13,314 bases of DNA from a virus (Duplodnaviria; Heunggongvirae; Uroviricota; Caudoviricetes), in the IMG/VR virus record IMGVR_UViG_2698536536_000004; one strand, given 5' to 3'. Of the stretch, positions 1,922 through 12,985 are shown in pieces; the first letter of the stretch is position 1, and every line of letters begins with the position of its first letter. The notes beneath the pieces were generated by a model, which was not told the DNA's origin, did not search any database, and saw only the letters and a program-made list of their open reading frames with translations. Position numbers and translations under genes: made by a program.

Positions 1922-2512
1922 ATGTCTCAAATTTTTGCTTACTGTCGGATATCAACGCTGGATCAGACCACCGAAAATCAACGCCGGGAAATCGAAAGTG
2001 CAGGTTTTAAAATCAAACCTCAGCAAATAATCGAAGAACACATTAGCGGCTCAGCAGCAACCAGTGAGCGTCCTGGTTTTAACCGGTTGCTTGCTCGCCT
2101 GAAATGTGGTGATCAATTGATTGTGACAAAACTGGATCGCCTTGGTTGTAATGCAATGGATATCAGGAAAACAGTGGAACAACTGACCGAAACAGGTATC
2201 AGAGTGCATTGCTTAGCATTGGGGGGCATTGACCTGACCAGTCCAACAGGAAAAATGATGATGCAAGTAATTTCAGCAGTCGCTGAATTTGAACGAGACC
2301 TTTTACTTGAACGCACTCATTCCGGGATAGTAAGAGCCCGCGGCGCAGGGAAACGTTTTGGTCGACCACCTGTGTTAAATGAAGAACAGAAACAGGCGGT
2401 ATTCGAACGAATTAAGTCAGGTGTAAGTATAAGTGCCATTGCCCGGGAATTCAAAACCTCGCGGCAAACCATTTTAAGAGCCAAAGCAAAACTTCAGACA
2501 CCTGACATATAA
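1922..2512 (+). CDS. Small serine recombinase, resolvase/invertase family, with C-terminal HTH
   Basis: 196 aa. The N-terminal motif YCRISTLDQ fits the serine-recombinase catalytic motif Y-x-R-x-S-T-x-x-Q (putative nucleophile Ser11). The C-terminal GRPP...SISAIAREF region looks like an HTH DNA-binding domain. It lies next to tail-fibre remnants, as Pin-type invertases do, but the N-terminus differs from the canonical Gin/Pin MLIGYVRVST. Confidence 0.85.
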
Positions 2513-2609: not shown

Positions 2610-2814
2610 CTACGGCAGTGCTGGCCATTCAATATCCTGTGCAGTTGACGTATCAACACGGTTCAGCAATACCCGATACTTTATCGGTACTGTTTGCTGG
2701 CAGACCTGTATGAGGCGGAATATATGCGTCACCTTCACCAATAAATTCATTAGTTCCGGCCAGCAGATTATAAATTTTTATGGTCCGTGGTTGTTCACTC
2801 ATTCTGAATGCCAT
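2610..2814 (-). pseudogene. Tail fibre assembly protein (Tfa) remnant with internal deletion and frameshift
   Basis: Manual translation from the ATG at 2814 gives [44 protein letters not shown], a Tfa N-terminus, then a stop after 53 codons. A second frame just downstream reads [23 protein letters not shown], a Tfa C-terminus, with the stop at 2610-2612. The roughly 120 codons between are missing. Confidence 0.6.
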
Positions 2815-4412
2815 TATGCAAGCCTCACAATATAGTTAAATGCGATGTTTTTGACGGTGTTTTCCGCGTTACCAGCAGCGTTAACGGTGATGGTGTGTCC
2901 ATGTGAACCAATCGCAACGGAGTGCGTATGAGCACCAATACCGACAGTATGCGCGTGTGCACCTGCAGATGCTGCTGTGCCGGACAGTGAATGGCTATGA
3001 TTACCATCTGTACTGGTATTCGCTAACCACCCCGTAGACATACCTACTGAGCCTTGTACACCCCAGGTATTTTGACCTGAGCTTGTATAACCATATTGAT
3101 AAGTATCTTTAAAAACACTGGGGTTAAATCGACGGCCATCTCTATGGCTGTGATTACCAGCTGCATTCGTGCTGCCACTTAAACTATGGGTATGCGCACC
3201 AGTGTTATTCGTGGATTTAGTGCCGTAATCAAACGACGATGTGGTTTTCGTCCCCAAATCTGTACTGGATGCGCTGGCGCTGTGGGTATGCGATTTAATG
3301 CCGTCCTGTTCCTGAGACAATACGGCCCGACCACTGGCAGGTTTGCCCTTAATCGTCCAGCCACGCATATCAGGGATCACGCCTGACGGATAAGCGGCTG
3401 CAAGTTTCGGGTAAGCAGATTTGTCAAAAGTCTGCCCCTGCATCAGGGCATAACCAGACGGAACGGTATCTGATGGCCACGGGATTGGTGCGCCGACTGG
3501 GTAGCTTTCTGGTGGAAGATTTTTCGAGGTATAAACTTCTGCCCAGTCATCCTCAAAACCATAACCGTCTCTTGAAGAACGGTAGAACAGACCACCATTT
3601 CTGTAATGCGCCTTCATCTGCAAGGTCCGGCAACTTCCGACTCCGGTATAGAAGTTAACCAGAATATAGCTGTCGCCAGAGCGGGTGACATTATAAGCGC
3701 CTGATTCGGCATTCCAGGGAACGCCACCATCCGCATCGGCATATGTATCCGTTGCCCTTCTGGCAAAAGCAGCCACATGCGCGGCGGTTAAAGTAATATC
3801 TTTGGAACCATCAAACTCAACACCAGAAACCCGTCTTGGCGTTTGCAGCTTTGTTGCTGTTAATGCATTACCGTTCAGACTTGCGGACAGTTTGGTTCCA
3901 ATAACCAGTTCGCCGGTTGCGTTATCAATAGCAAACGGTCTTAATGTATTCCAGCCACCATAAACATCACCTTGATTGGTAAGCAGCAGGTAAGTTTTAG
4001 CGCCATCATTACGCCATAATGCCCCATACTCCCCACCTATCATTCGAATCTGATTACCACCACGCGCTACAATTTCGTCTGTGGCAAAAAGTTTTTTGCA
4101 CGACAAGTTATCGTTAACGATTAACGAATGAGACTCATAAAAACCACGCCCACTCTTAAAATCAAGGATAACGTCCGCCGCGATACATTCAGTCGCCGGA
4201 TTTGTTGCCCCAAACTTATAGGTCGTATCATTAACAACGAGATCAGCACCAGGTGCGGATATTGACAGGCCATCTTCGATATCTTTGTATGGTATGTAGC
4301 TGACACCTTCCAGACCATCGTTACCACTTGGGCCAGTGATTAACACTGATGCTATAGCAATTGCTCCGCCACCAATAGCAGCAGCAACGGCTTTTCGTAA
4401 TGATGGAGGCAT
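2814..4412 (-). CDS. Chimeric ORF: SAR-endolysin N-terminus (~45 aa) fused in frame to a side tail fibre (Stf) distal region with an HxH-repeat tip
   Basis: 532 aa. The N-terminus [45 protein letters not shown] matches the Gly/Ala-rich signal-arrest-release domain of phage-21-type endolysin (RrrD/R21) as I recall it. The sequence then becomes beta-rich fibre-like and ends in seven HxH motifs and [11 protein letters not shown], typical of lambdoid Stf C-termini. The start overlaps the holin stop (TAATG), with GAGGTG upstream. Confidence 0.75.
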
Positions 4413-4627
4413 TATTCACCTCTCGCAGCCTTGCGCTTATCTTCTTTAATCTTGAAATAAAGGTTTGTCAGGTACGTCAGCAGGCCAAATACCAGGCTAC
4501 CCAGCACACCTATTGCTGCCCACTGTGAGGGCGTGACTTTATCGAGCAGCTGTAAAAACCAGTAACCGGCACTACCTGCTGAGGTGCCATAGGCGACACC
4601 CGTTGTTAACTTATCCATGGATTTCAT
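4412..4627 (-). CDS. essD: Phage-21-type class II holin (pinholin S21 family)
   Basis: From the internal Met the product is [71 protein letters not shown] (71 aa), with two predicted TM helices and the dual-start motif M-K-S-M. The SD GAGGTGGGG lies upstream of ATG 4627. The six-frame ORF extends to 4672, probably spuriously. Confidence 0.85.
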
Positions 4628-4754
4628 AACCCCACCTCGCAGACAAAGCGGGTGTAAATTGAGGGAATACAACGTATCGCAAAAAAGCAGAAACGTAACA
4701 GACTCGGAGTCAGTGAATAACTCAGGTATTGGGTTATCAGCTAATATCGAGACT

Positions 4755-4785
4755 CAAAAAATGGAAAAACCCGCTCGACGGCGGG
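4755..4785 (-). terminator. Intrinsic terminator in the late-operon leader (tR'-like), ~130 bp upstream of the holin
   Basis: The minus strand reads CCCGC-cgtcga-GCGGG followed by TTTTTCCATTTTTTG, a GC stem-loop plus U-tract. Its position upstream of S matches the lambdoid pR'-tR'-S arrangement. Confidence 0.5.
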
Positions 4786-4990
4786 TTTAAGCTGTGTGAC
4801 GAAGTAACCACTCTTAACAGCATAACCAATTTTTTACGTACGTAAACCACAAAATGATATTTGCGAGAATGCTACCGAGTATTGAAAACACCACTACAAA
4901 TACATAAGCAAATCTCAACAAATAACCAACAAATAATTTCCAGTGTTATTTTTAGCCGATTTAAATTGAACCTTCAAATTACAGAGCACT
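4786..4990 (-). promoter_or_regulatory. Probable late promoter (pR'-like) and Q-utilisation region; exact -35/-10 not resolved
   Basis: AT-rich leader immediately upstream of the tR'-like terminator. One candidate is TTGAAG-17 bp-TAAAAAT on the minus strand. This is inferred from lambdoid architecture, not from a clear consensus match. Confidence 0.25.
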
Positions 4991-5216
4991 TATAAATAAC
5001 AGCCGTTAATATAAATTGGCTAATAGATTTGTTTTTATTCAGCCAAGATCCATGAATAGGATTCGATAGAAAAAAGTTCAGATAAAAATAGAGATCTACT
5101 TCACAAATCAAACGAGAAACCAAAACTTACATCTTGAAATAATCACATTGATTAGATGAATATTTATCGCGCAGTGACATCATTTTTTAATAATAGTTCA
5201 AAAAAAAGGGCTCACG

Positions 5217-6299
5217 ATGAAAAAATTAACAGTGGCAATTTCTGCTGTAGCTGCATCAGTACTGATGGCGATGTCTGCTCAGGCAGCTGAAATTTATAAT
5301 AAAGACAGTAACAAGCTGGATCTATATGGGAAAGTTAATGCCAAGCACTACTTCTCCTCTAATGATGCAGATGATGGTGATACTACTTATGCCCGTCTTG
5401 GCTTCAAAGGTGAAACCCAAATCAACGATCAACTGACTGGTTTCGGTCAGTGGGAATATGAATTCAAAGGCAACCGCGCTGAATCTCAAGGCTCCTCCAA
5501 AGACAAAACCCGTCTTGCATTTGCAGGCCTGAAATTCGGGGACTACGGCTCAATCGATTACGGCCGTAACTACGGTGTAGCATATGACATCGGTGCGTGG
5601 ACTGACGTTCTGCCAGAATTCGGTGGCGATACCTGGACCCAAACAGATGTGTTCATGACTGGTCGCACCACTGGTGTTGCAACTTATCGTAACAACGACT
5701 TCTTTGGTCTGGTTGATGGTCTGAACTTTGCTGCTCAGTATCAGGGTAAAAATGACCGCACTGACGTAACTGAAGCTAATGGTGATGGTTTCGGTTTCTC
5801 CACTACTTATGAGTATGAAGGATTCGGTGTAGGTGCAACCTATGCTAAATCTGACCGCACTAATAATCAGGTTATCTACGGTAACAACAGCCTGAATGCA
5901 TCTGGTCAAAATGCTGAAGTATGGGCAGCTGGTCTGAAATATGATGCGAACAACATCTATCTGGCTACCACCTATTCTGAAACCCAGAACATGACTGTTT
6001 TTGGTAATAACCATATTGCCAACAAAGCACAAAACTTCGAAGTAGTTGCACAATATCAGTTCGACTTCGGTCTGCGTCCGTCCGTTGCTTACCTGCAATC
6101 TAAAGGAAAAGACTTGGGTGCGTGGGGTGATCAGGACCTGGTTGAATATATTGATGTAGGTGCAACCTATTACTTCAACAAAAATATGTCCACTTTTGTT
6201 GATTACAAAATCAACCTGATTGATAAGAGCGATTTCACGAAAGCATCTGGCGTTGCTACCGATGATATCGTTGCTGTAGGTATGGTTTACCAGTTCTAA
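5217..6299 (+). CDS. nmpC: Outer membrane porin, OmpC/OmpF/PhoE family (prophage-encoded NmpC/Lc type), apparently intact
   Basis: 360 aa with signal peptide [29 protein letters not shown], the characteristic porin N-terminus, and C-terminal ...VAVGMVYQF ending in Phe. The SD AAGGG is present. Its position and orientation relative to Q and the holin match DLP12 nmpC. Confidence 0.9.
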
Positions 6300-6462
6300 T
6301 TTGATTACTAAAAGATATGTTGCGGGAGGCTTTGCCTCCCCAACATATAAGTGGCTCCCTCAAGCCACTTCCTTTAGGAGCACAACCTTGCTTCTAACTA
6401 TATAAACCTTCTGTTATATATTACCCTTTATTTTTGGGGGCGTTGCAACGCCCCATTTTTAA
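6300..6462 (+). ncRNA. ipeX: Candidate IpeX-like small RNA in the structured nmpC 3' region
   Basis: The ~160 nt after the nmpC stop contains three hairpins: ATATGTTGCGGGAGGC/GCCTCCCCAACATAT, AAGTGGCT/AGCCACTT, and a terminal GGGGCGTTG/CAACGCCCC plus U-tract. I recall a DLP12 sRNA (IpeX) encoded at the 3' end of nmpC, but the exact boundaries are not verified. Confidence 0.35.
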
Positions 6463-6470
6463 TAATTTTT
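6436..6470 (+). terminator. Rho-independent terminator downstream of nmpC
   Basis: Perfect 18-bp palindrome GGGGCGTTGCAACGCCCC followed by ATTTTTAATAATTTTT on the plus strand. Confidence 0.65.
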
Positions 6471-6487
6471 AGTAAACAATTGGCATA

Positions 6488-6871
6488 TTAATTAGAGTTA
6501 TTAACAACGATATCCATCTCTAACCGGATATCTAATGCCATTAACATCCCTTCAATTATGCCCTCAGCCTTCTGTAACCTTTTCCCGATATAACCATCAG
6601 AGCAGCAATGCTTACCTGCCAGTGACATGAATGTCATACCGACTACATAATAATCTACTAATAAATCGTGCAAATCGCTGTTGTTCTTTTTCAGACGGGC
6701 CATGCACCCGCAAATAATCATCGCGTCATCGTCACAACATTGCGGGCGAGATTTTACTTTTGAAGTAATTAATCCCTTAAAACCGGCGGCAATGGACGAC
6801 CAGGTCACATCTTCATGATTATTAGCCGCCCACGCTCCCCAACGCTCAAGAACCATCTGAATATCACGCAT
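6488..6871 (-). CDS. quuD: Late-gene antiterminator Q (phage 82/21 type)
   Basis: The product [31 protein letters not shown]...[18 protein letters not shown]... (127 aa from the internal Met) matches my recollection of DLP12 QuuD. Cysteine clusters suggest a zinc-binding Q. The six-frame ORF starts five codons earlier at 6886. Confidence 0.85.
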
Positions 6872-6956
6872 CAACTTACTCCACAAAACTCAGACCAGAA
6901 CGCCAATTACAAGCAAAAATCAACAAAACAGTATTAGTTGATTGTTATCTCTGACT

Positions 6957-7097
6957 TCATACTCCTGCTCCTGTCAGTGTTTTGGCGTAATTCTTCAGTA
7001 TTCGGTAATCGGTCAAAACAGAGCCGGGGAAACGATATAAGCGCAGACGCCCCCAGCGGTGGCGAAGAAGTTCTGCCATATTAAACTCAAACATCAT
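6957..7097 (-). CDS. ylcG: Small conserved nin-region protein YlcG (46 aa)
   Basis: Manual translation gives [46 protein letters not shown]. The start ATG overlaps the rusA stop (ATGATGA). It is below the ORF-track length cutoff. Confidence 0.5.
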
Positions 7098-7456
7098 TCA
7101 TTCCCCATTTCGGTGATGGTCAGTTCCAGCCTCCCACCTTTGGTAACAGGCATCTTCACAACGCGGTAATCAACGACCTGAGCATCATCCAGCCAGAAAC
7201 CTGCTTTAGTGAGTGCGTCAAAAGCGGCTTTTTGCAGATTATCCAGGTCACGGCGACGGCGATCCGGCATGTGGCACTCAATGCGGATTTTCACAGGCAT
7301 AGCCAGGCCGATATCCAGCATTGCGTTTTTAATGATTCGGGCGACGTTATCGCGGTATGCCTGCCCCTCTGCGCTGACGTGCGTGCGCCCGCGATTATGG
7401 CGGTAATAGCGATTATTGCTCGGAGGCCAGGGTAATGTGATGCTGTAGGTATTCAC
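7094..7456 (-). CDS. rusA: Holliday junction resolvase RusA
   Basis: The 120-aa product [42 protein letters not shown]... matches RusA as recalled. The start overlaps the ybcO stop (ATGA). Confidence 0.9.
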
Positions 7457-7743
7457 GCCTTAATAACCCCCTCTTTCAGCCAGATAACCTGTGTTCTCGC
7501 CATACCTTCCAGCGCGCATTCTTTTGCATATGCAGCATCGACAAAATGTGTGCGGCGGTCGATTTCGTCGTGGCAGGCAGAACATGCAATGGTGGCAATC
7601 AGGTCTGGCGGTTTGGTACCGGTGCCGCACAATCCAGTCAGCCGGATATGTGCCAGTACAGACGTTTCAGGGTTGCCATTACATACGCCAGGGATTCTTA
7701 CCTGGCATTCCCGACTACGCGCTGCTTTTCTCAAATCAGCCAT
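7453..7743 (-). CDS. ybcO: DUF1364-family putative nuclease (YbcO)
   Basis: From the internal Met: [64 protein letters not shown]... (96 aa), cysteine-rich. The start overlaps the ninE 3' end by 8 nt. The six-frame ORF starts at 7782. Confidence 0.75.
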
Positions 7744-7906
7744 GATTCCTCCTTGCTGCCAGTCGCAACCATTTTTTATCAACCAGGCTGGCGGTATATC
7801 CGAGCAGTGTTGGTATTTCGGAAGGCTTCAGCTCCGGTTTACGCTTACGACGATCTGGTACTCTGTAGATGTGTCCGTTCATGACACGAATAAGCGGTGT
7901 AGCCAT
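7736..7906 (-). CDS. ninE: NinE-family small protein (56 aa)
   Basis: Manual translation gives [56 protein letters not shown]. The start overlaps the ybcN stop (TAATG). It is below the ORF-track cutoff. Confidence 0.7.
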   Translation of the reverse strand: MATPLIRVMNGHIYRVPDRRKRKPELKPSEIPTLLGYTASLVDKKWLRLAARRNHG

Positions 7907-8361
7907 TACGCCTCCTGCTTGTCGCGGAGCAGCTGGAACTCGCAGCTCTGCGGAATAGTCAGGTGGCAGCCAATATTCACCGCCCAGGCTTCAACCTTAC
8001 ACAGGAAGACATACATCTCTCCGGTATCAAGATCGGAGGTATGGCGTAACGACTGGATAGTGGTGATATCACCGGTTACGACATCAACCAGGTCTTTGGT
8101 TTCATAACCGAGATATGTGTGTTTGAGAGCATCTTTTACCCAAGCTGGAGTAGCGAACGTTTTACCCCTGCTGATGAGGTATTCACTGATTTCGCTGTAC
8201 CACATGTGGCTGAGTGCATTCTGGGAAAGACTGCGTTTCTCACGCCACGGTTTAAGCACCATGCGAAAGCATTTGCCCTCCTCCAGATAAGGCTGGATCT
8301 GCCGACCGATAGCGGTGAAGTTACCGCGATGTAATTTGATGCCATCTTGTGGGAGATTCAC
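7906..8361 (-). CDS. ybcN: NinB-family recombination / DNA base-flipping protein (YbcN)
   Basis: The 151-aa product [61 protein letters not shown]... matches YbcN/NinB as recalled. The start codon is GTG, preceded by SD GGAGGT. Confidence 0.85.
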
Positions 8362-8548
8362 GCTTCACCTCCGCAGAGGTCAAACGCTGGATACAATATA
8401 TCGCAGGTGCATTTCTGCATCTGTGGAGGGAGAAGAGAGTTTGGATTGTGTGTGCGCATAAACGTCCCCGTTTAGCGCAGAAGTCACCGGAGTTGTTCAG
8501 GCTCCGATGACATGATTATGGCGAGTTGATTATCGCAAATCAAAGGTT

Positions 8549-8905
8549 TTAATTGTGCTTTATTCCTTCAAGCGTTGCCTTCATACCAACCAAAGAAATG
8601 TTTAGCTCTCCAACTTTCTCAGGGCTATATAATTCAGAATGAAGCCAATATTCTAATTTATCTAAACATCTTTTAGCCAGCTCTCGATCAAAGTCTACGA
8701 CTTGGGAAGACGCTTCATACCAAAGCCTATAAAGTTTTTCTTCTTCGTTTGGGTTATTAGGCTCACCACGTTTTAATTTTTCAGTATATAAAATTGTTGA
8801 ATAAATCGCAGGAGTTAATCCAGTGATTGCCCTCTGCCGCAGATCGGATTTGTTTGTTATCCACCCCAACAGACGATCTCCCATCCATGTGATAATTGTA
8901 TCCAT
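8549..8905 (-). CDS. Hypothetical protein, 118 aa, AT-rich cargo gene of unknown function
   Basis: Uninterrupted ORF with an ATG start and predicted largely helical product (MDTIITWMGDRLLGWITNKSDLRQRAITG...). I recognise no family. It takes the place of ybcL/ybcM/ylcH in the K-12 DLP12 order. Confidence 0.5.
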   Translation of the reverse strand: MDTIITWMGDRLLGWITNKSDLRQRAITGLTPAIYSTILYTEKLKRGEPNNPNEEEKLYRLWYEASSQVVDFDRELAKRCLDKLEYWLHSELYSPEKVGELNISLVGMKATLEGIKHN

Positions 8906-9366
8906 GCTTTAGCCCTTCTTAGTAAATAGTGTGTAGGGCGACTGAAGGACCGAGTTTATGCTTTTTCGCATTGCTTTCAGTTAGTACACCGGTATCGCAC
9001 CGGAAACAATCCTACGGCAAATTGGTTGTCTGACCTCTCGGTTTTTCGTGCATTAACCGATACCCACTACAGTCTCGGCGAAAGCTGCACACCCCCAGGG
9101 TGTACTGGTAGCACTCGGCACAGCCTAGCACGCCACTTTCTTCTCACTATCCAGTCTAATTTTATCCCCTAGTCAGACACTCAGATGTAGTGCTCCGCAG
9201 CGGCATGCGGGGGAATACAAAAACTCGGACAAAATTGGGCCCTCCTTTTTGAATCACTCGCGGGGATGTAGTTATTAATACATGGAAAAAGATCTGTTTT
9301 CAAATCCAACATTATATGGTTTCAATACCACGGGGTGGCTATGTGTTTCTCATTGTTAATTGGAAT

Positions 9367-9690
9367 CTACTGTAATCGATCCGAACGTAAATGCGGCAAA
9401 ACTCGACTCCACTTATCATCCTGCCACGGCCGGAATTTTACATGTGCCGTTTCTCTGGCAAGGATTGCCTGTGCCTTATTGAGTATCTGGGGATATTCTT
9501 GCTCGATAGAAGTGAAGCGACCAGCTTCACGATGCTCCGCAACCTGAAGAAGAGGAGTAACGTTCTGGTAGGTAATTAACATCACATTCCCTGCTCGCCA
9601 TAACCAGGCGAGTGTGCAAAGTTCGTTATCAGTGAATTGTTTTGTGATTGGGTATTGTTGAACTGCTAGAACGAGAACGCCAGCATCCAT
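9367..9690 (-). CDS. Hypothetical protein, 107 aa, unknown function
   Basis: ORF with ~50% GC (MDAGVLVLAVQQYPITKQFTDNELCTLAWLWRAGNVMLITYQ...). Overlapping plus-strand ORFs 9335-9547 and 9391-9579 are probably shadows. The SD is weak. I recognise no family. Confidence 0.45.
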   Translation of the reverse strand: MDAGVLVLAVQQYPITKQFTDNELCTLAWLWRAGNVMLITYQNVTPLLQVAEHREAGRFTSIEQEYPQILNKAQAILARETAHVKFRPWQDDKWSRVLPHLRSDRLQ

Positions 9691-9764
9691 TGGCAGTCTC
9701 TATAGTAAAACCATAGCTCAGGACGCTTCGTTCAGGATAGATAATTTTATTGTACTTACCTAAC

Positions 9765-9800
9765 TTTCTTATTATAGCACGGTTGAAAAAGTGATTATTA
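9765..9800 (-). promoter_or_regulatory. Candidate extended -10 promoter (TGcTATAAT) upstream of the 107-aa ORF
   Basis: The minus strand reads cgTGcTATAAT at 9771-9781, about 80 nt upstream of ATG 9690. No clear -35 is present. Confidence 0.25.
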
Positions 9801-9801
9801 C

Positions 9802-11328
9802 TCAAAAATAAACCTCACCATCAACCATATATTTAAGAGTACTTATCGCCTGCTGGGCGGATATTGTTTTCATTAAAGGATAGTGTTTAAAAACAATGCC
9901 ATTCATAAAATAGATATCACAGGTTTTATTATCTGTATTGATTATGATTTTTTCGAATGTTTTATAGGCAAGTGTACGACATAGCTCTCGCCCATTTTTA
10001 CTGGTTAAGTCAATAGCATGAAAATCACCAAGTGAACTCACCGCTTTACTCTTCAAAGTTTTTAATGATACAGAAGCCCTTCGTAATTCCTTATCTAATA
10101 CTCTGATTTTTTCTGCTATAGCGGTAACTTCAGGCGCAACAGATAATGCAGCAATTAAATTATTAATTTTCATCTGGAGCTCAATAATTTTCAACTCTAA
10201 AGTTTCATTAGCATCTTTCTTGTTTTCAACTGGTTGGATTTTACTACAATTAAAAAGCAACTCATTAATGATATTATAATCAACCAAATCTCTCTTTATT
10301 GATGGCCTGTCACATCGATGCAGTCTTCTCATCGGACAAACATAATAGCCATGCAAACTTCCAGATACCGCATGAACAATCATGGTATTACCACAAGCCT
10401 CGCACTTCATAACTGTTCGAAGTAGATTTATCAACATAGGATTTTTGCTACTATTGCTAATACCAAAAGGTGCCAACCGAATTTCCTGTACAGCGTAAAA
10501 CAAATCATCTGATATGACTCTGGGATAATAGCCAGCGATTTCACTTATTCCTTTACCTCTTGCACGATATGAAGGTACGCATATACCTATCAGAGCTTTA
10601 TTCGCTAATAATTTTTCAATTACAGAAGGTCCCCATGCACTTTCTTTTCCTGAGAAATTCTTTACAGCATGATCATTTAAATACTTGGCTATTGCATTCA
10701 ATGAGCGCCTTTCCATCCTGAGTTTAAAAATTAGCTCAATAGTTTTCACCCTGTCGGGGTCTGGAACAAAAGCCGTTCTTTTGTCATCTAAGGAGAGCCA
10801 TCTCGGACAAGACGCCGTCATAATCGTACCTGATTCCAGTGCATCCTGCCGTTTTTTCTTCCATGATAATTTAACCCGACTTGACTTTATCTCGCTTTCT
10901 TCATTTGCCCTTTGTGCTATAAGTATGGCTTTTATTAATGAATATGGCTCATTCAAAGAGTCAATATTATAGACTGTATTGTCGCAAAGAGTTATAACAT
11001 CAATACCGTGATTCAAAATCAATTTCAGACGTTCAATCGCTTCACCGACTTTTTCTCTTGAAAGTCTGTCCAGACTTTCAACTAACAATGTAGTTCCTGG
11101 CAATATATAACCATGCTCTATAGCATCTAAAAATTCCGAAAAAGCTCCTGATTGTGCATGCTTTCCTTTGAATGCACTTAATCCTAAATCTTCATATGTT
11201 ATGGTATCAAGATAATAATCACTATTTACCTTTAACCATTCAGCAATAAGTCTTCTCTGTCGGTTTAATGAGTCGCCAGACATCTGACCTGGTGATGAAA
11301 ATCGCATATATGCTATGGCTTTTTTCAT
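9802..11328 (-). CDS. ybcK: Large serine recombinase (YbcK-like): resolvase catalytic domain, recombinase domain and Cys-rich zinc-ribbon region
   Basis: 508 aa. The N-terminus AIAYMRFSSPGQ resembles a serine-recombinase catalytic motif. The size and the CEACGN...C/CPMRRLHRC cysteine cluster are typical of large serine recombinases. Very AT-rich. Matches my recollection of DLP12 YbcK. Confidence 0.85.
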   Translation of the reverse strand: MKKAIAYMRFSSPGQMSGDSLNRQRRLIAEWLKVNSDYYLDTITYEDLGLSAFKGKHAQSGAFSEFLDAIEHGYILPGTTLLVESLDRLSREKVGEAIERLKLILNHGIDVITLCDNTVYNIDSLNEPYSLIKAILIAQRANEESEIKSSRVKLSWKKKRQDALESGTIMTASCPRWLSLDDKRTAFVPDPDRVKTIELIFKLRMERRSLNAIAKYLNDHAVKNFSGKESAWGPSVIEKLLANKALIGICVPSYRARGKGISEIAGYYPRVISDDLFYAVQEIRLAPFGISNSSKNPMLINLLRTVMKCEACGNTMIVHAVSGSLHGYYVCPMRRLHRCDRPSIKRDLVDYNIINELLFNCSKIQPVENKKDANETLELKIIELQMKINNLIAALSVAPEVTAIAEKIRVLDKELRRASVSLKTLKSKAVSSLGDFHAIDLTSKNGRELCRTLAYKTFEKIIINTDNKTCDIYFMNGIVFKHYPLMKTISAQQAISTLKYMVDGEVYF

Positions 11329-11509
11329 GGTGACACCTGCTAACGTATGCTTTTATAAACCTTAGTGGTGGGATATAATTTTTGTTTAATTTTTATTTAA
11401 AAAGACAATTAAGGTCACATTATCTTGAATATACAACAATAATCGTATTGCAATTTTCTTACGCCATAATCTTGAAAGCACAAAAGAATACATAAAAAAA
11501 TAAAGACAT

Positions 11510-11553
11510 TAACAAAAAGCATAAAACGAGGCTCATATAAATATAAGAGCCTC
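11510..11553 (-). terminator. Rho-independent terminator downstream of emrE
   Basis: The minus strand reads GAGGCTC-(12-nt loop)-GAGCCTC followed by GTTTTATGCTTTTTGTT. Confidence 0.5.
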
Positions 11554-11584
11554 CATATTTTAGTCGTTTAGAAACAAATTATTT

Positions 11585-11917
11585 TTAATGTGGTGTGCTT
11601 CGTGACAATAAATTAATAACCAACACACCGGCACAAATCAACATCATGCCTATAATGGCTGGCAGGTCCAGCCGTTGGCCGAAAAGTCCCCATGACAGTA
11701 AGCTAATCAGGACAATACCGACTCCTGACCAGATAGCATAAGCAATCCCTGTAGGAATATAAGCCAGCGTCTGAGCTAATAACCAGAATGATGCACAATA
11801 ACAAATAATTGTACCAACAGATGGCCATAACCGTGTAAAACCTTCTGAAAACTTCATTAAGGTTGTACCAATGACCTCTGCAAGTATTGCACCACCAAGA
11901 TAAATATAAGGGTTCAT
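11585..11917 (-). CDS. emrE: Small multidrug resistance (SMR) efflux transporter EmrE
   Basis: From the internal Met: MNPYIYLGGAILAEVIGTTLMKFSEGFTRLWPSVGTIICYCASFWLLAQTLAYIPTGIAYAIWSGVGIVLISLLSWGLFGQRLDLPAIIGMMLICAGVLVINLLSRSTPH (110 aa). It has four TM helices and the conserved Glu14, and AGGAAAG lies upstream. The six-frame ORF starts at 11971. Confidence 0.9.
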   Translation of the reverse strand: MNPYIYLGGAILAEVIGTTLMKFSEGFTRLWPSVGTIICYCASFWLLAQTLAYIPTGIAYAIWSGVGIVLISLLSWGLFGQRLDLPAIIGMMLICAGVLVINLLSRSTPH

Positions 11918-11984
11918 AGAATATTCTTTCCTGTTCAAACTGGAGAGAATTGTACTACAGTTTGAACTCAACTCACCTGTTTCA

Positions 11985-12287
11985 TCATTGTGTACCCATT
12001 GATGTTCTTTTATATACCCTCAATACCCGTTTCATCGCGGCACTCTGGCGACACTCCTTAAAAATCAGATTCGTGCTCACCTTTCCTTCCCGTTCTTCTC
12101 TGGTAGCAAACCGGTAATACACCGTTCGCCAGACCTTACCTTCGATAACCAGAAGACCTGCCCGTGCCATTTTAGCCGCAGCCTGATTTATGCTGGTTAC
12201 CGTTGCGCCTGTTACCGCGGCAACGTCCTGCGCACAGAATTTCTTATGAGTCCCCAGGTAATGAATAATTGCCTCTTTGCCCGTCAT
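11985..12287 (-). CDS. ren: Ren-like protein (lambda ren homologue)
   Basis: The product MTGKEAIIHYLGTHKKFCAQDVAAVTGATVTSINQAAAKMARAGLLVIEGKVWRTVYYRFATREEREGK... resembles lambda Ren as recalled. The start overlaps the P stop (ATGA), as in lambda. Confidence 0.7.
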   Translation of the reverse strand: MTGKEAIIHYLGTHKKFCAQDVAAVTGATVTSINQAAAKMARAGLLVIEGKVWRTVYYRFATREEREGKVSTNLIFKECRQSAAMKRVLRVYKRTSMGTQ

Positions 12288-12985
12288 ACCCTTGCTCCTT
12301 TCAGCCCAAACTTAGCTTTGATTTCTGCGATCTTCGCCAGAGCCTGTGCACGATTTAGAGGTCTACCGCCCATGACAGGAAGTTGTTTTACTGGTTCAGG
12401 TATAGCCTCACCACGGTTAATTCGTGCGGTCATACAGGACAGTTCATCGGCAGCCTTGCGCCGTAATTCCGCGTCAGTCAACGCATTGGCCCGCATGTTC
12501 TGATACAGGTTGGTAACCAGCCAGTAGTGCGCGTTTGATTTCCACGGATAAGACTCTGCATCCGGATACAGCCCGCGCTTCCGGCAATACTCGTAAACCA
12601 TATCAACCAGCTCGCTGGCGTTTGGCAGCCCGGCGGTAACGGATGCTTCTTCCCGGCACCAGGCGACAAACTGCCCGGGTGATGGCAGGAATGGTCGATT
12701 CTGCCGACGGGCTACGCGCATTCCAGCGTTAACCTGTTCCATTGTGGTGATCCCGTTTTCCCGGAAAGCCAGCACCCACTGGCGGCGGATTTCGTTCAGT
12801 TCATTCTGGTCACGGTTAGCCAGGCTCGCCGGGAAAGTTGCCAGTAACTGGCTGAACACACCATTGATGATCTGCGCTACCTGTTGTACCTGCGGCTTTT
12901 CGTCGTACTGTTCCGGCATGTTGTTGGCGATCCGGCGCATCTGCTCACGGTCAAAGTTAACCATCTGTGCGGCGATGTTTTTCAT
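12284..12985 (-). CDS. P: Replication protein P (lambda P-like DnaB helicase loader)
   Basis: The 233-aa product MKNIAAQMVNFDREQMRRIANNMPEQYDEKPQVQQVAQIINGVFSQLLATFPASLANRDQNELNEIRRQWVLAF... is near-identical to lambda P as recalled. The start overlaps the O stop (ATGA). Confidence 0.85.
   Translation of the reverse strand: MKNIAAQMVNFDREQMRRIANNMPEQYDEKPQVQQVAQIINGVFSQLLATFPASLANRDQNELNEIRRQWVLAFRENGITTMEQVNAGMRVARRQNRPFLPSPGQFVAWCREEASVTAGLPNASELVDMVYEYCRKRGLYPDAESYPWKSNAHYWLVTNLYQNMRANALTDAELRRKAADELSCMTARINRGEAIPEPVKQLPVMGGRPLNRAQALAKIAEIKAKFGLKGARV

Follow-up and report, generated by a model that had tools for sequence, protein, structure and literature searches.

An in-frame fusion of SAR endolysin and tail fibre sequences in a DLP12-family prophage remnant of Escherichia coli

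Lysis genes and late region

The window analysed here (the whole stretch of 13,314 nt, IMG/VR record IMGVR_UViG_2698536536_000004) carries on its minus strand a lysis region in which a holin gene is followed directly by a chimeric ORF of 532 aa (2814-4412), composed of the N-terminus of the endolysin R21/RrrD and the C-terminus of a side tail fibre protein (Stf). Upstream of the holin gene, and of a porin gene of opposite orientation, lies an intact gene for a late antiterminator Q of 127 aa (6488-6871, minus strand), which was assigned by PF06530 and is annotated as quuD in homologous sequence. A consensus scan of the interval from the porin gene to the holin gave no sigma-70 promoter at its threshold and found only a terminator-like hairpin followed by a T-run (4767-4788, minus strand), situated in the late leader at a distance of approximately 140 nt ahead of the holin start. 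Reporter expression has been obtained in K-12 from the sequence that precedes S of DLP12 (PMC7918800). No structured RNAs or tRNAs were found in the window.

The holin gene (4412-4627, minus strand; ATG at 4627, stop TAA at 4414-4412) encodes a class II holin of the S21 type, a member of the pinholin family with 71 aa, the counterparts of which in homologous loci are annotated essD. The protein covers 1-63 of the 64 positions of the profile PF04971 ('Bacteriophage P21 holin S', E-value 2e-35) and its N-terminus, MKSMDK, possesses the MKSM dual-start motif with starts at M1 and M4, confirming the pinholin that a first-pass annotation of this DNA had placed ahead of the chimera. The same annotation had described the stop codon of the holin as overlapping the ATG of the 532-aa ORF, with GAGGTG upstream, and the sequence agrees: the two genes share one base (TAATG, 4410-4414, minus strand) and GAGGTG lies 4 nt before the ATG. 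This arrangement is not new to the fusion, as it is the native S/R junction, with an identical one-base overlap in the intact phage PhiR34_1 (S 16901-17116, R 17116-17613).

Endolysin half of the fusion

The fusion consists of endolysin codons 1-45 followed, in the same frame, by the final 487 codons of stf. Its first part (rrrD/R21 codons 1-45, 4278-4412, minus strand) is 100% identical to R21 (PDB 3HDE) and RrrD (PDB 4ZPU), which upholds the proposal that residues 1-45, with E35 and D44, are the N-terminus of a signal-arrest-release (SAR) endolysin. The SAR transmembrane segment occupies residues 8-26 (nt 4391-4335) and is the sole hydrophobic segment of the fusion. It has the N-terminal position and weakly hydrophobic, Gly/Ala-rich composition by which such segments are recognised, with a Kyte-Doolittle mean of 2.1 over the 19 residues from residue 8 and a Gly/Ala content of 55% over residues 8-27.

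Homology to R21 stops at residue 45, so that E35 and D44 are kept while T50 and the remaining lysozyme fold are lost. Only 12 of the approximately 123 residues of the lysozyme domain remain, and a Pfam search of the fusion gave no match to PF00959, the phage lysozyme domain with the Glu-Asp-Thr triad, which intact R possesses at residues 34-156. At the nucleotide level, the homology to DLP12 with 100% identity ends at 4279 and rrrD alleles match as far as 4277.

The window shares with the phage 21/DLP12 lysis cassette the PF04971 holin with its dual starts, the one-base S/R overlap and residues 1-45 of R, in which the SAR segment, E35 and D44 lie. It differs in the deletion of R residues 46-165, which make up nearly the whole of PF00959 and include T50, and of Rz/Rz1. 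No ORF for the Rz/Rz1 spanins is present in the window, both genes lying within the 23.6-kb interval that is missing in comparison with PhiR34_1. As read from its genes, the cassette is able to depolarise the membrane, but neither to degrade murein nor to disrupt the outer membrane; having no working endolysin or spanins, it would be unable to lyse the cell.

Fibre half of the fusion

Residues 46-532 (stf codons 648-1134 and stop, 2814-4277, minus strand) match the last 487 aa of PhiR34_1 Stf, a protein of 1134 aa, with 100% identity. They share 99.6% identity with phage Kati and 88% identity with a 1120-aa StfR-like protein, from residue 644 of the latter. The nucleotide sequence differs from that of PhiR34_1 by a single synonymous mismatch (at 4107) in 1600 nt. 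Pfam analysis identified a Gp34_trimer-like domain (fusion residues 63-162, nt 4226-3927, minus strand) and a collar domain (residues 307-354, nt 3494-3351, minus strand), the families matched being PF07484, PF03335 and PF12604, and a C-terminal receptor-binding region is present. The latter (residues 301-532, nt 3512-2817, minus strand) is a gp37-like needle and tip with HxH repeats, which matches the receptor-binding tip of T4 gp37 (PDB 2XGF, E-value 2e-85) with the HxH repeats and the C-terminal ending included. Further matches in the PDB for the fibre part are 4UXE, 8JU3 and 5YVQ. The identity to PhiR34_1 Stf and the match to 2XGF thus establish residues 46-532 as the tail fibre region with HxH repeats that had been suspected.

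With the lambdoid Stf proteins of PhiR34_1, Kati and Rac (StfR), which have a tip like that of T4 gp37, the fusion has the Gp34_trimer-like, collar and HxH needle/tip domains in common. Unlike these, it lacks residues 1-647, and Pfam found no PF08400 tail-attachment domain in it, a domain located at residues 3-136 in intact Stf; a membrane signal-anchor stands in their place. A second difference is that the adjoining gene for the chaperone Tfa is frameshifted.

tfa pseudogene and invertase

The tfa pseudogene (2610-2814, minus strand) was delimited by blast against related sequences and by three-frame translation. It retains 44 native codons (2814-2683), after which there is an internal deletion of 371 bp with a frameshift (junction at 2682-2685, with a 4-bp overlap), and the native C-terminus of Tfa now lies in another frame (2610-2681). 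Intact Tfa has 191 aa with PF02413 at residues 73-191, and the PF02413 region has been removed in the window; no intact cognate tfa is therefore located directly downstream of the fibre sequence. This break in tfa was missed in the first-pass annotation.

Convergent with tfa is a gene for a serine invertase of the PinR/PinQ type (1922-2512, plus strand; Pfam Resolvase and HTH_7), in the same arrangement as in PhiR34_1. A search for inverted crossover repeats flanking pin found none that qualified, making the invertase an orphan. An invertible fibre segment under the control of Pin was considered and rejected, there being neither flanking inverted repeats nor an alternative stf/tfa segment.

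Origin of the fusion

PhiR34_1 is an intact phage with the gene order of DLP12, and the window is collinear with it except for one deletion of 23,585 bp spanning R codon 45 to stf codon 648. The left collinear arm comprises window 4279-8544 (phage 17249-12984) and the right arm window 2682-4281 (phage 42431-40832). In the alignment the blast end-points at 4279 and 4281 place the junction at 4277-4281 (minus strand), in a TATCG microhomology common to rrrD (...GATATCG, in the ATC-GTT allele) and stf (...TTTATCG). PhiR34_1 supplies the gene content of the missing interval: the deletion has taken the remainder of R, Rz/Rz1 and bor, the terminase genes Nu1 and A, every head and tail gene, lom and the first 647 codons of stf. 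The chromosomal context is the usual site of DLP12, with appY, ompT and envY to the right of the prophage. Judging from these sequence comparisons, the locus is the remnant of a DLP12-family lambdoid prophage of E. coli, with an ancestor resembling intact PhiR34_1.

The first-pass annotation had supposed that a single deletion joined endolysin codon 45 to the middle of stf in frame, and this is supported by the collinearity with PhiR34_1 apart from one deletion across TATCG. One illegitimate, microhomology-mediated event removed the 23,585 bp from R codon 46 through stf codon 647, leaving ends of R and stf that met in frame by chance, and a second deletion, of 371 bp, frameshifted the adjoining tfa. 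One in three deletions that join two ORFs of like orientation will fall in frame, and a long ORF at such a junction is consequently not in itself improbable.

Identity to PhiR34_1 is 97-99% in the left arm and 99.94% in the right, and prophages at the Rac or Qin loci hold nearly identical stf-tfa-pin modules. Such features could suggest a two-step origin or illegitimate recombination between different resident prophages, with a left arm from DLP12 joined to a right arm of Rac/Qin type, or else a shortening of the 735-aa R::Stf fusion of the EC361 type, which contains the entire fibre part of the window. An origin of this kind is unlikely. Both arms have the order and orientation of one intact phage, and the right flank, with ynaE/ynaM-like genes, a methyltransferase gene, appY and ompT, is the normal neighbourhood of DLP12. 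The sister prophage of TUM12355 has, in the same place, the same 3′ end of stf and 5′ end of tfa (100% over 445 nt). The EC361-type fusion was rejected as a parent because its R portion shares just 93% identity with that of the window and ends at codon ~58 instead of 45.

A TUM12355-type prophage was also rejected as a parent, as it has already lost stf sequence that is still present in the window; the two prophages therefore derive from a more complete ancestor by separate deletions.

Related deletions with an end in stf

Scars of cryptic lambdoid prophages that can be set beside the window are K-12 DLP12 nohD-aaaD'-'tfaD, TUM12355 A'::'stf, CP66-6 Rz'::'stf and the EC361-type R'::'stf at the Rac locus. 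These likewise result from a large deletion of the morphogenetic region with ends in a late gene and in stf or tfa, and have left chimeric or truncated reading frames behind. What sets the window apart are its end-points, R codon 45 and stf codon 648, with frames that match by chance. The three deletions of sister prophages that end in stf comprise one in frame, the EC361-type R'::'stf (2208 nt), and two out of frame, TUM12355 A'::'stf (1658 nt) and CP66-6 Rz'::'stf (1963 nt). With the window counted, in-frame junctions amount to 2/4 against 1.3 expected, which fits chance.

The EC361-type SAR::Stf protein is an independent in-frame fusion; 17 complete genomes and 73 contigs carry it, with tfaR intact. 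Its ORF is truncated by ISSen4 in AR_0128, and the match in AR_0118 is cut off likewise.

Distribution and age of the junction

The exact fusion protein was found on three contigs only, from GCA_001268725.1 (NCBI) and the Logan assemblies ERR12666599 and ERR3330549. These are 0-1 SNP apart over 8-12 kb, and the fusion ORF is intact in all three. Megablast with a 161-nt junction probe gave no match in 5,426 complete E. coli genomes (0/5,426), and exact scans with the junction 29-mer (CCATACAAAGATATCGAAGATGGCCTGTC) found it absent from 185,579 GTDB species-representative genomes and from the contigs of 241 million metagenome records. The survey proposed in the first-pass annotation thus did not find the same junction kept across other E. 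coli genomes; it is confined to the source lineage, in a few near-clonal genomes. It should be mentioned that a further deletion of 5 kb is present upstream in L005, one of the sequences compared.

The source assembly is a draft and E. coli has several similar copies of stf and rrr (a median of 3 matching places per genome), circumstances in which an assembly or sequencing artefact could produce a chimeric contig by joining prophage fragments at a short repeat. This is exceedingly improbable here, as the identical junction, with kilobases of identical flank, occurs in three independent assemblies from different sequencing runs, and the 5 nt shared at the junction are far too short to mislead an assembler. 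On these comparisons the fusion junction is real, but rare and very recent. Conservation across lineages under purifying selection, a mark of domestication, was not found. The substitutions are too few for dN/dS: with carriers 0-1 SNP apart and one synonymous difference from a living phage, there is nothing on which selection could be tested. The one base in 1.6 kb also argues that the fusion has had no time under selection.

Fate and possible role of the product

Since the native ribosome-binding site and overlapping start are kept behind the pinholin, activity of the remaining late operon would probably lead to transcription and translation of the fusion. Its SAR segment would direct the product into the Sec pathway and hold it in the inner membrane, the fibre fragment facing the periplasm, until depolarisation of the membrane released it. 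The product would be unable to cut murein, because so little of the lysozyme domain is left, or to attach to a tail, because the N-terminal domain of Stf is gone, and it would be without its cognate chaperone. Engineered fusions of PhoA to the SAR domains of R21 and P1 Lyz undergo Sec export and are mostly membrane-bound, the R21 construct being largely membrane-tethered, with small amounts released uncleaved (PMC8385771). As in these, an R21 SAR N-terminus stands before a foreign passenger in the window; the fusion here is however natural, and its passenger is a trimeric, beta-rich fibre fragment of 487 aa whose folding normally takes place in the cytoplasm and with the aid of a chaperone. 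Given the portability of the R21 SAR domain, and by analogy with these constructs, export of the product is plausible.

Both a neutral scar and a domesticated module had been put forward for the fusion at first pass. The scar is favoured: the fusion is very probably a neutral by-product of ordinary prophage decay after one 23,585-bp deletion, and not a selected device, and is most likely functionless. The domesticated module is unsupported, the junction being private, tfa broken, the difference from a living phage one synonymous base and the parallel fusion cut by an IS element.

Some observations do run against a neutral scar. The ORF is intact in 3/3 carrier assemblies and keeps its SAR domain as well as a complete receptor-binding tip; the second, independent SAR::Stf fusion at the Rac locus retains tfaR, and a recurrent advantage is possible; and Tfa could come in trans from other prophages of the same genome.

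In a domesticated module, the SAR domain would deliver a folded receptor-binding fragment to the periplasm, where it would exclude phages with the same fibre or be released by depolarisation in concert with the pinholin. The exclusion route envisaged is the blocking of a porin or LPS receptor during its biogenesis. The intact ORF with its native translational coupling, a complete tip that shows no difference from the one in a living phage, the existence of a second independent in-frame SAR::Stf fusion, the portability of the SAR domain (PMC8385771) and the proposal that the DLP12 lysis module is domesticated in K-12 (PMC7918800) all speak for this reading. It is nevertheless very unlikely, since the junction occurs in a few near-identical genomes only and is absent from all large surveys, the sequence divergence is too small for selection to show, and the cognate tfa is frameshifted. 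The tip of T4 gp37 binds surface-exposed parts of its receptors (OmpC/LPS), and such parts are out of the periplasmic reach of a gp37-type tip. In addition, the parallel fusion is IS-cut in AR_0128, and the in-frame rate is that of chance. A wider proposal, that SAR-endolysin::tail-fibre fusions are a recurrent route by which E. coli places a phage receptor-binding domain in its own envelope, tethered to the membrane until depolarisation by the co-expressed pinholin releases it, for exclusion of phages with that fibre or for modulation of the envelope or vesicles, is highly improbable; were it true, the fusions at the DLP12 and Rac loci would be its first two examples.

Export together with a changed phage sensitivity would make the fusion a natural re-use of SAR as a delivery signal for a receptor-binding domain. 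No finding of this analysis points to such a product, and the fusion matters little as it stands. It is a clean case of cryptic prophage decay that has been fully reconstructed, with both parents, the 5-nt microhomology and the lost interval of 23.6 kb all nameable thanks to the survival of PhiR34_1 as an intact DLP12-like phage. It also shows that at least one natural lineage can do without the endolysin and spanins of DLP12, for which domestication in K-12 has been proposed. For annotation the locus is a caution, as pipelines name the ORF just 'tail fiber protein'.

Structure of the fusion ORF and its pinholin gene

The 532-residue ORF on the minus strand (4412-2814) joins codons 1-45 of the signal-arrest-release (SAR) endolysin gene R in frame to the 3′ part of the side tail fibre gene stf. 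A PDB sequence search found residues 1-45 to be the same as those of phage 21 lysozyme (3HDE) and DLP12 RrrD (4ZPU) at every position, with the alignment collapsing right after YKDI, which upholds the SAR-endolysin assignment of the first-pass annotation and places the break at this point. E35 and D44 are kept, but T50 and the remaining lysozyme fold are gone, and no lysozyme domain was detected in a Pfam search of the fusion, whereas in a related phage, whose R is intact, PF00959 occupies residues 34-156. The sole hydrophobic stretch of the whole protein is the Gly/Ala-rich segment at residues 8-26. Having no catalytic domain, the fusion cannot be classed as a SAR endolysin.

From residue 46 to its end at 532, the fusion has 100% identity with the C-terminal 487 residues of the 1134-residue Stf of Escherichia phage PhiR34_1 (PV340559.1), as the proposed tail fibre origin predicted. 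The same residues are 99.6% identical to the side tail fibre of phage Kati (tblastn of phage genomes in both cases) and 88% identical to a 1120-residue StfR-like protein from its residue 644 on. This region possesses a Gp34_trimer-like domain, a collar domain and fibre repeats (Pfam), while residues 301-532 align with the T4 gp37 receptor-binding tip of known crystal structure (2XGF, E-value 2e-85), a match that takes in both the iron-binding HxH repeats and an 11-residue stretch at the C-terminus. Compared with a lambdoid Stf, the receptor-binding half is present, but the attachment domain is missing from the fusion and the chaperone from the locus, so that the product is not a tail fibre proper.

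Upstream lies the 71-residue holin ORF (minus strand, ATG at 4627, stop TAA at 4414-4412), which matches the full profile of PF04971 ("Bacteriophage P21 holin S", E-value 2e-35) and begins with MKSMDK, the dual-start motif of the S21 type. Its stop overlaps the fusion ATG by one base (TAATG, 4414-4410, minus strand), GAGGTG lies four bases 5′ of that ATG, and the fusion stop at 2816-2814 likewise overlaps the start codon (ATG) of a 53-residue ORF on the same strand. Comparison with the PhiR34_1 map shows that the native translation signals of R are retained. ORF calling, Pfam and reading of the sequence agreed with all coordinates and sequence features first recorded here. The locus descends from, and works like, the pinholin and SAR-endolysin cassettes of phage 21 and DLP12, but unlike a functional lysis cassette of these phages it has no spanins. 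A sigma-70 consensus scan between the porin and holin genes found no late promoter at its threshold. A strong terminator-like hairpin followed by a T-run (4767-4788, minus strand), some 140 nt 5′ of the holin start, may be the tR′-type terminator of the late leader.

Origin by deletion

PhiR34_1 has the gene map of a complete DLP12, with int, exo-bet-gam, cI, cro, cII, O, P and ren in its early part, then emrE, ybcK, ybcL, ybcM, ybcN, ninE, ybcO, rusA, ylcG, Q and a porin gene in opposite orientation, and finally S, R, Rz, bor, Nu1, A, all head and tail genes, J, lom, stf, tfa, pin and ynaE-like genes. Window 4279-8544 corresponds to PhiR34_1 17249-12984 (99.0% identity), 2682-4281 to 42431-40832 (99.94%) and 858-2685 to 44626-42799 (99.95%). 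The window lacks just one interval, of 23,585 bp, running from R codon 46 to stf codon 647. Where the two sequences meet, many E. coli strains have rrrD alleles with ...AAAGATATCGTT (match to 4277), the stf side has ...GCGTTTATCGAAGAT and the window itself ...AAAGATATCGAAGAT; both parents therefore share TATCG, a microhomology of the kind typical of illegitimate recombination. In several complete genomes DLP12 matches the left arm at 100% identity, the match ending at 4279 in each, and the source contig (GCA_001268725.1, CXYB01000006.1) runs rightward into appY, ompT, envY and nfrA, the normal DLP12 neighbourhood. Collinearity, the single missing interval, the shared TATCG and this neighbourhood all support the earlier claim of one deletion.

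Distribution and age of the junction

An assembly artefact, raised earlier as a possibility, is ruled out, as the junction occurs in an NCBI draft and also in the Logan assemblies of two separate runs. A look-up of the exact fusion protein gave these three contigs, which over 8-12 kb show at most a single base of difference from the window. Among 5,426 complete E. coli genomes, a 161-nt junction probe gave thousands of matches to one half or the other and none spanning the junction; the survey of other E. coli proposed earlier thus came back empty. The exact junction 29-mer was also absent from GTDB (one genome per species) and from 241 million metagenome records. With three near-identical contigs and none elsewhere in these surveys, the junction, which is previously undescribed, is private and near-clonal. 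The fibre half differs from PhiR34_1 by one synonymous base in 1600 nt, so the event is very recent.

Decay and parallel deletions

The 53-residue ORF following the fusion is the start of tfa, whose breakage escaped the first-pass annotation. Intact Tfa has 191 residues with a Caudo_TAP domain at 73-191; comparison with it and three-frame reading delimit a pseudogene at 2610-2814 (minus strand), in which 44 native codons are followed by a 371-bp internal deletion (junction 2682-2685, 4-nt overlap) and a frameshift, the 23 native C-terminal codons surviving in a different frame from the first 44. Given this frameshifting deletion, the cognate chaperone of the fibre tip is dead. Another fusion carrier (Logan ERR12666599) has a further loss of approximately 5 kb upstream, relative to window 7893-12877, from ybcN to part of the replication region, and decay is continuing within the small clade of carriers.

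Other deletions also end in stf. In the EC361 type, a prophage at the Rac locus, essD is followed by a 735-residue in-frame fusion of R codons 1 to ~58 with stf from about codon 461, found in 17 complete genomes (NZ_AP027417.1 378784-380991, or 6231-8438 of the extracted locus, and 16 others) and on 73 contigs of a large collection. tfaR and pinR are intact beside it, and it is annotated just as "tail fiber protein". Its R part is only 93% identical in DNA to that of the window, so this fusion arose independently. In AR_0128 (NZ_CP021722.1, locus 2851-6066) an ISSen4 insertion, which also took out essD and genes upstream, cuts the 735-residue fusion, annotated there as a partial pseudogene; AR_0118 shows the same cut-off match pattern. 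TUM12355, the closest DLP12 relative, has terminase A joined out of frame to the last 313 nt of stf (locus 5184-6841, 1658 nt), and CP66-6 has an Rz-like gene joined to stf, also out of frame (6960-8922, 1963 nt). Two of these four scars (window and EC361 type) are in frame, where chance would give 1.3, and this small sample (n = 4) gives no hint of selection for in-frame products.

Predicted fate of the product

A fragment 5′ of DLP12 S drives a reporter in K-12 (PMC7918800). The R21 SAR domain, whose sequence is the same as that encoded by the fusion start, exports PhoA, keeping most in the membrane and freeing a little uncleaved (PMC8385771). Collapse of the proton-motive force by pinholin frees SAR proteins, and S21 pinholes are too small for protein passage (PMC6116005). 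With the operon on, the chimera would be made and inserted with its fibre fragment in the periplasm; depolarisation would free it into the periplasm and no further, for want of muralytic activity and a spanin. The usual folding of the fibre fragment takes place in the cytoplasm with Tfa, which makes it doubtful that it would trimerise correctly once exported by Sec. The receptor parts that a gp37-type tip recognises are surface-exposed and would be out of reach from the periplasm. A product so confined, of doubtful folding and with its receptor parts out of reach is unlikely to have a host function, and the suggestion of a domesticated module is not supported. The locus is one of the many deletion scars found in cryptic lambdoid prophages. 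That SAR::Stf fusions are recurrently used as envelope-displayed receptor-binding domains has no positive support and is highly improbable; were they so used, the interest of the locus would rise.

Neighbouring genes

An intact 360-residue porin gene (nmpC/ompD-like, 5217-6299, plus strand) lies between Q and the holin gene on the opposite strand, as in PhiR34_1. T4 gp37 binds OmpC or LPS, and it is conceivable that this moron and the receptor of the fibre, whose tip resembles that of gp37, are linked. The intact lambdoid phage PhiR34_1 has the full DLP12 gene order, with emrE, ybcK, ybcL/ybcM, the nmpC/ompD-like porin and bor, so a complete phage genome with the "cryptic" DLP12 gene set is still in existence. 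Window 8545-9792 is not collinear with PhiR34_1, ybcL and ybcM being replaced, as in TUM12355, by a 118-residue ORF with no function assigned (8549-8905) and a 107-residue ORF with a P22 antirepressor C-terminal domain (9367-9690). The PinR/PinQ-type invertase gene (1922-2512, plus strand) is an orphan, as in PhiR34_1 and Rac, with no inverted crossover sites or alternative fibre segment detected nearby. The PhiR34_1 record ends at window 858, which leaves the ybcY-like gene for a 222-residue SAM-dependent methyltransferase (156-824) beyond that phage genome. A further tfa fragment precedes this gene in TUM12355, suggesting an older prophage remnant next door.
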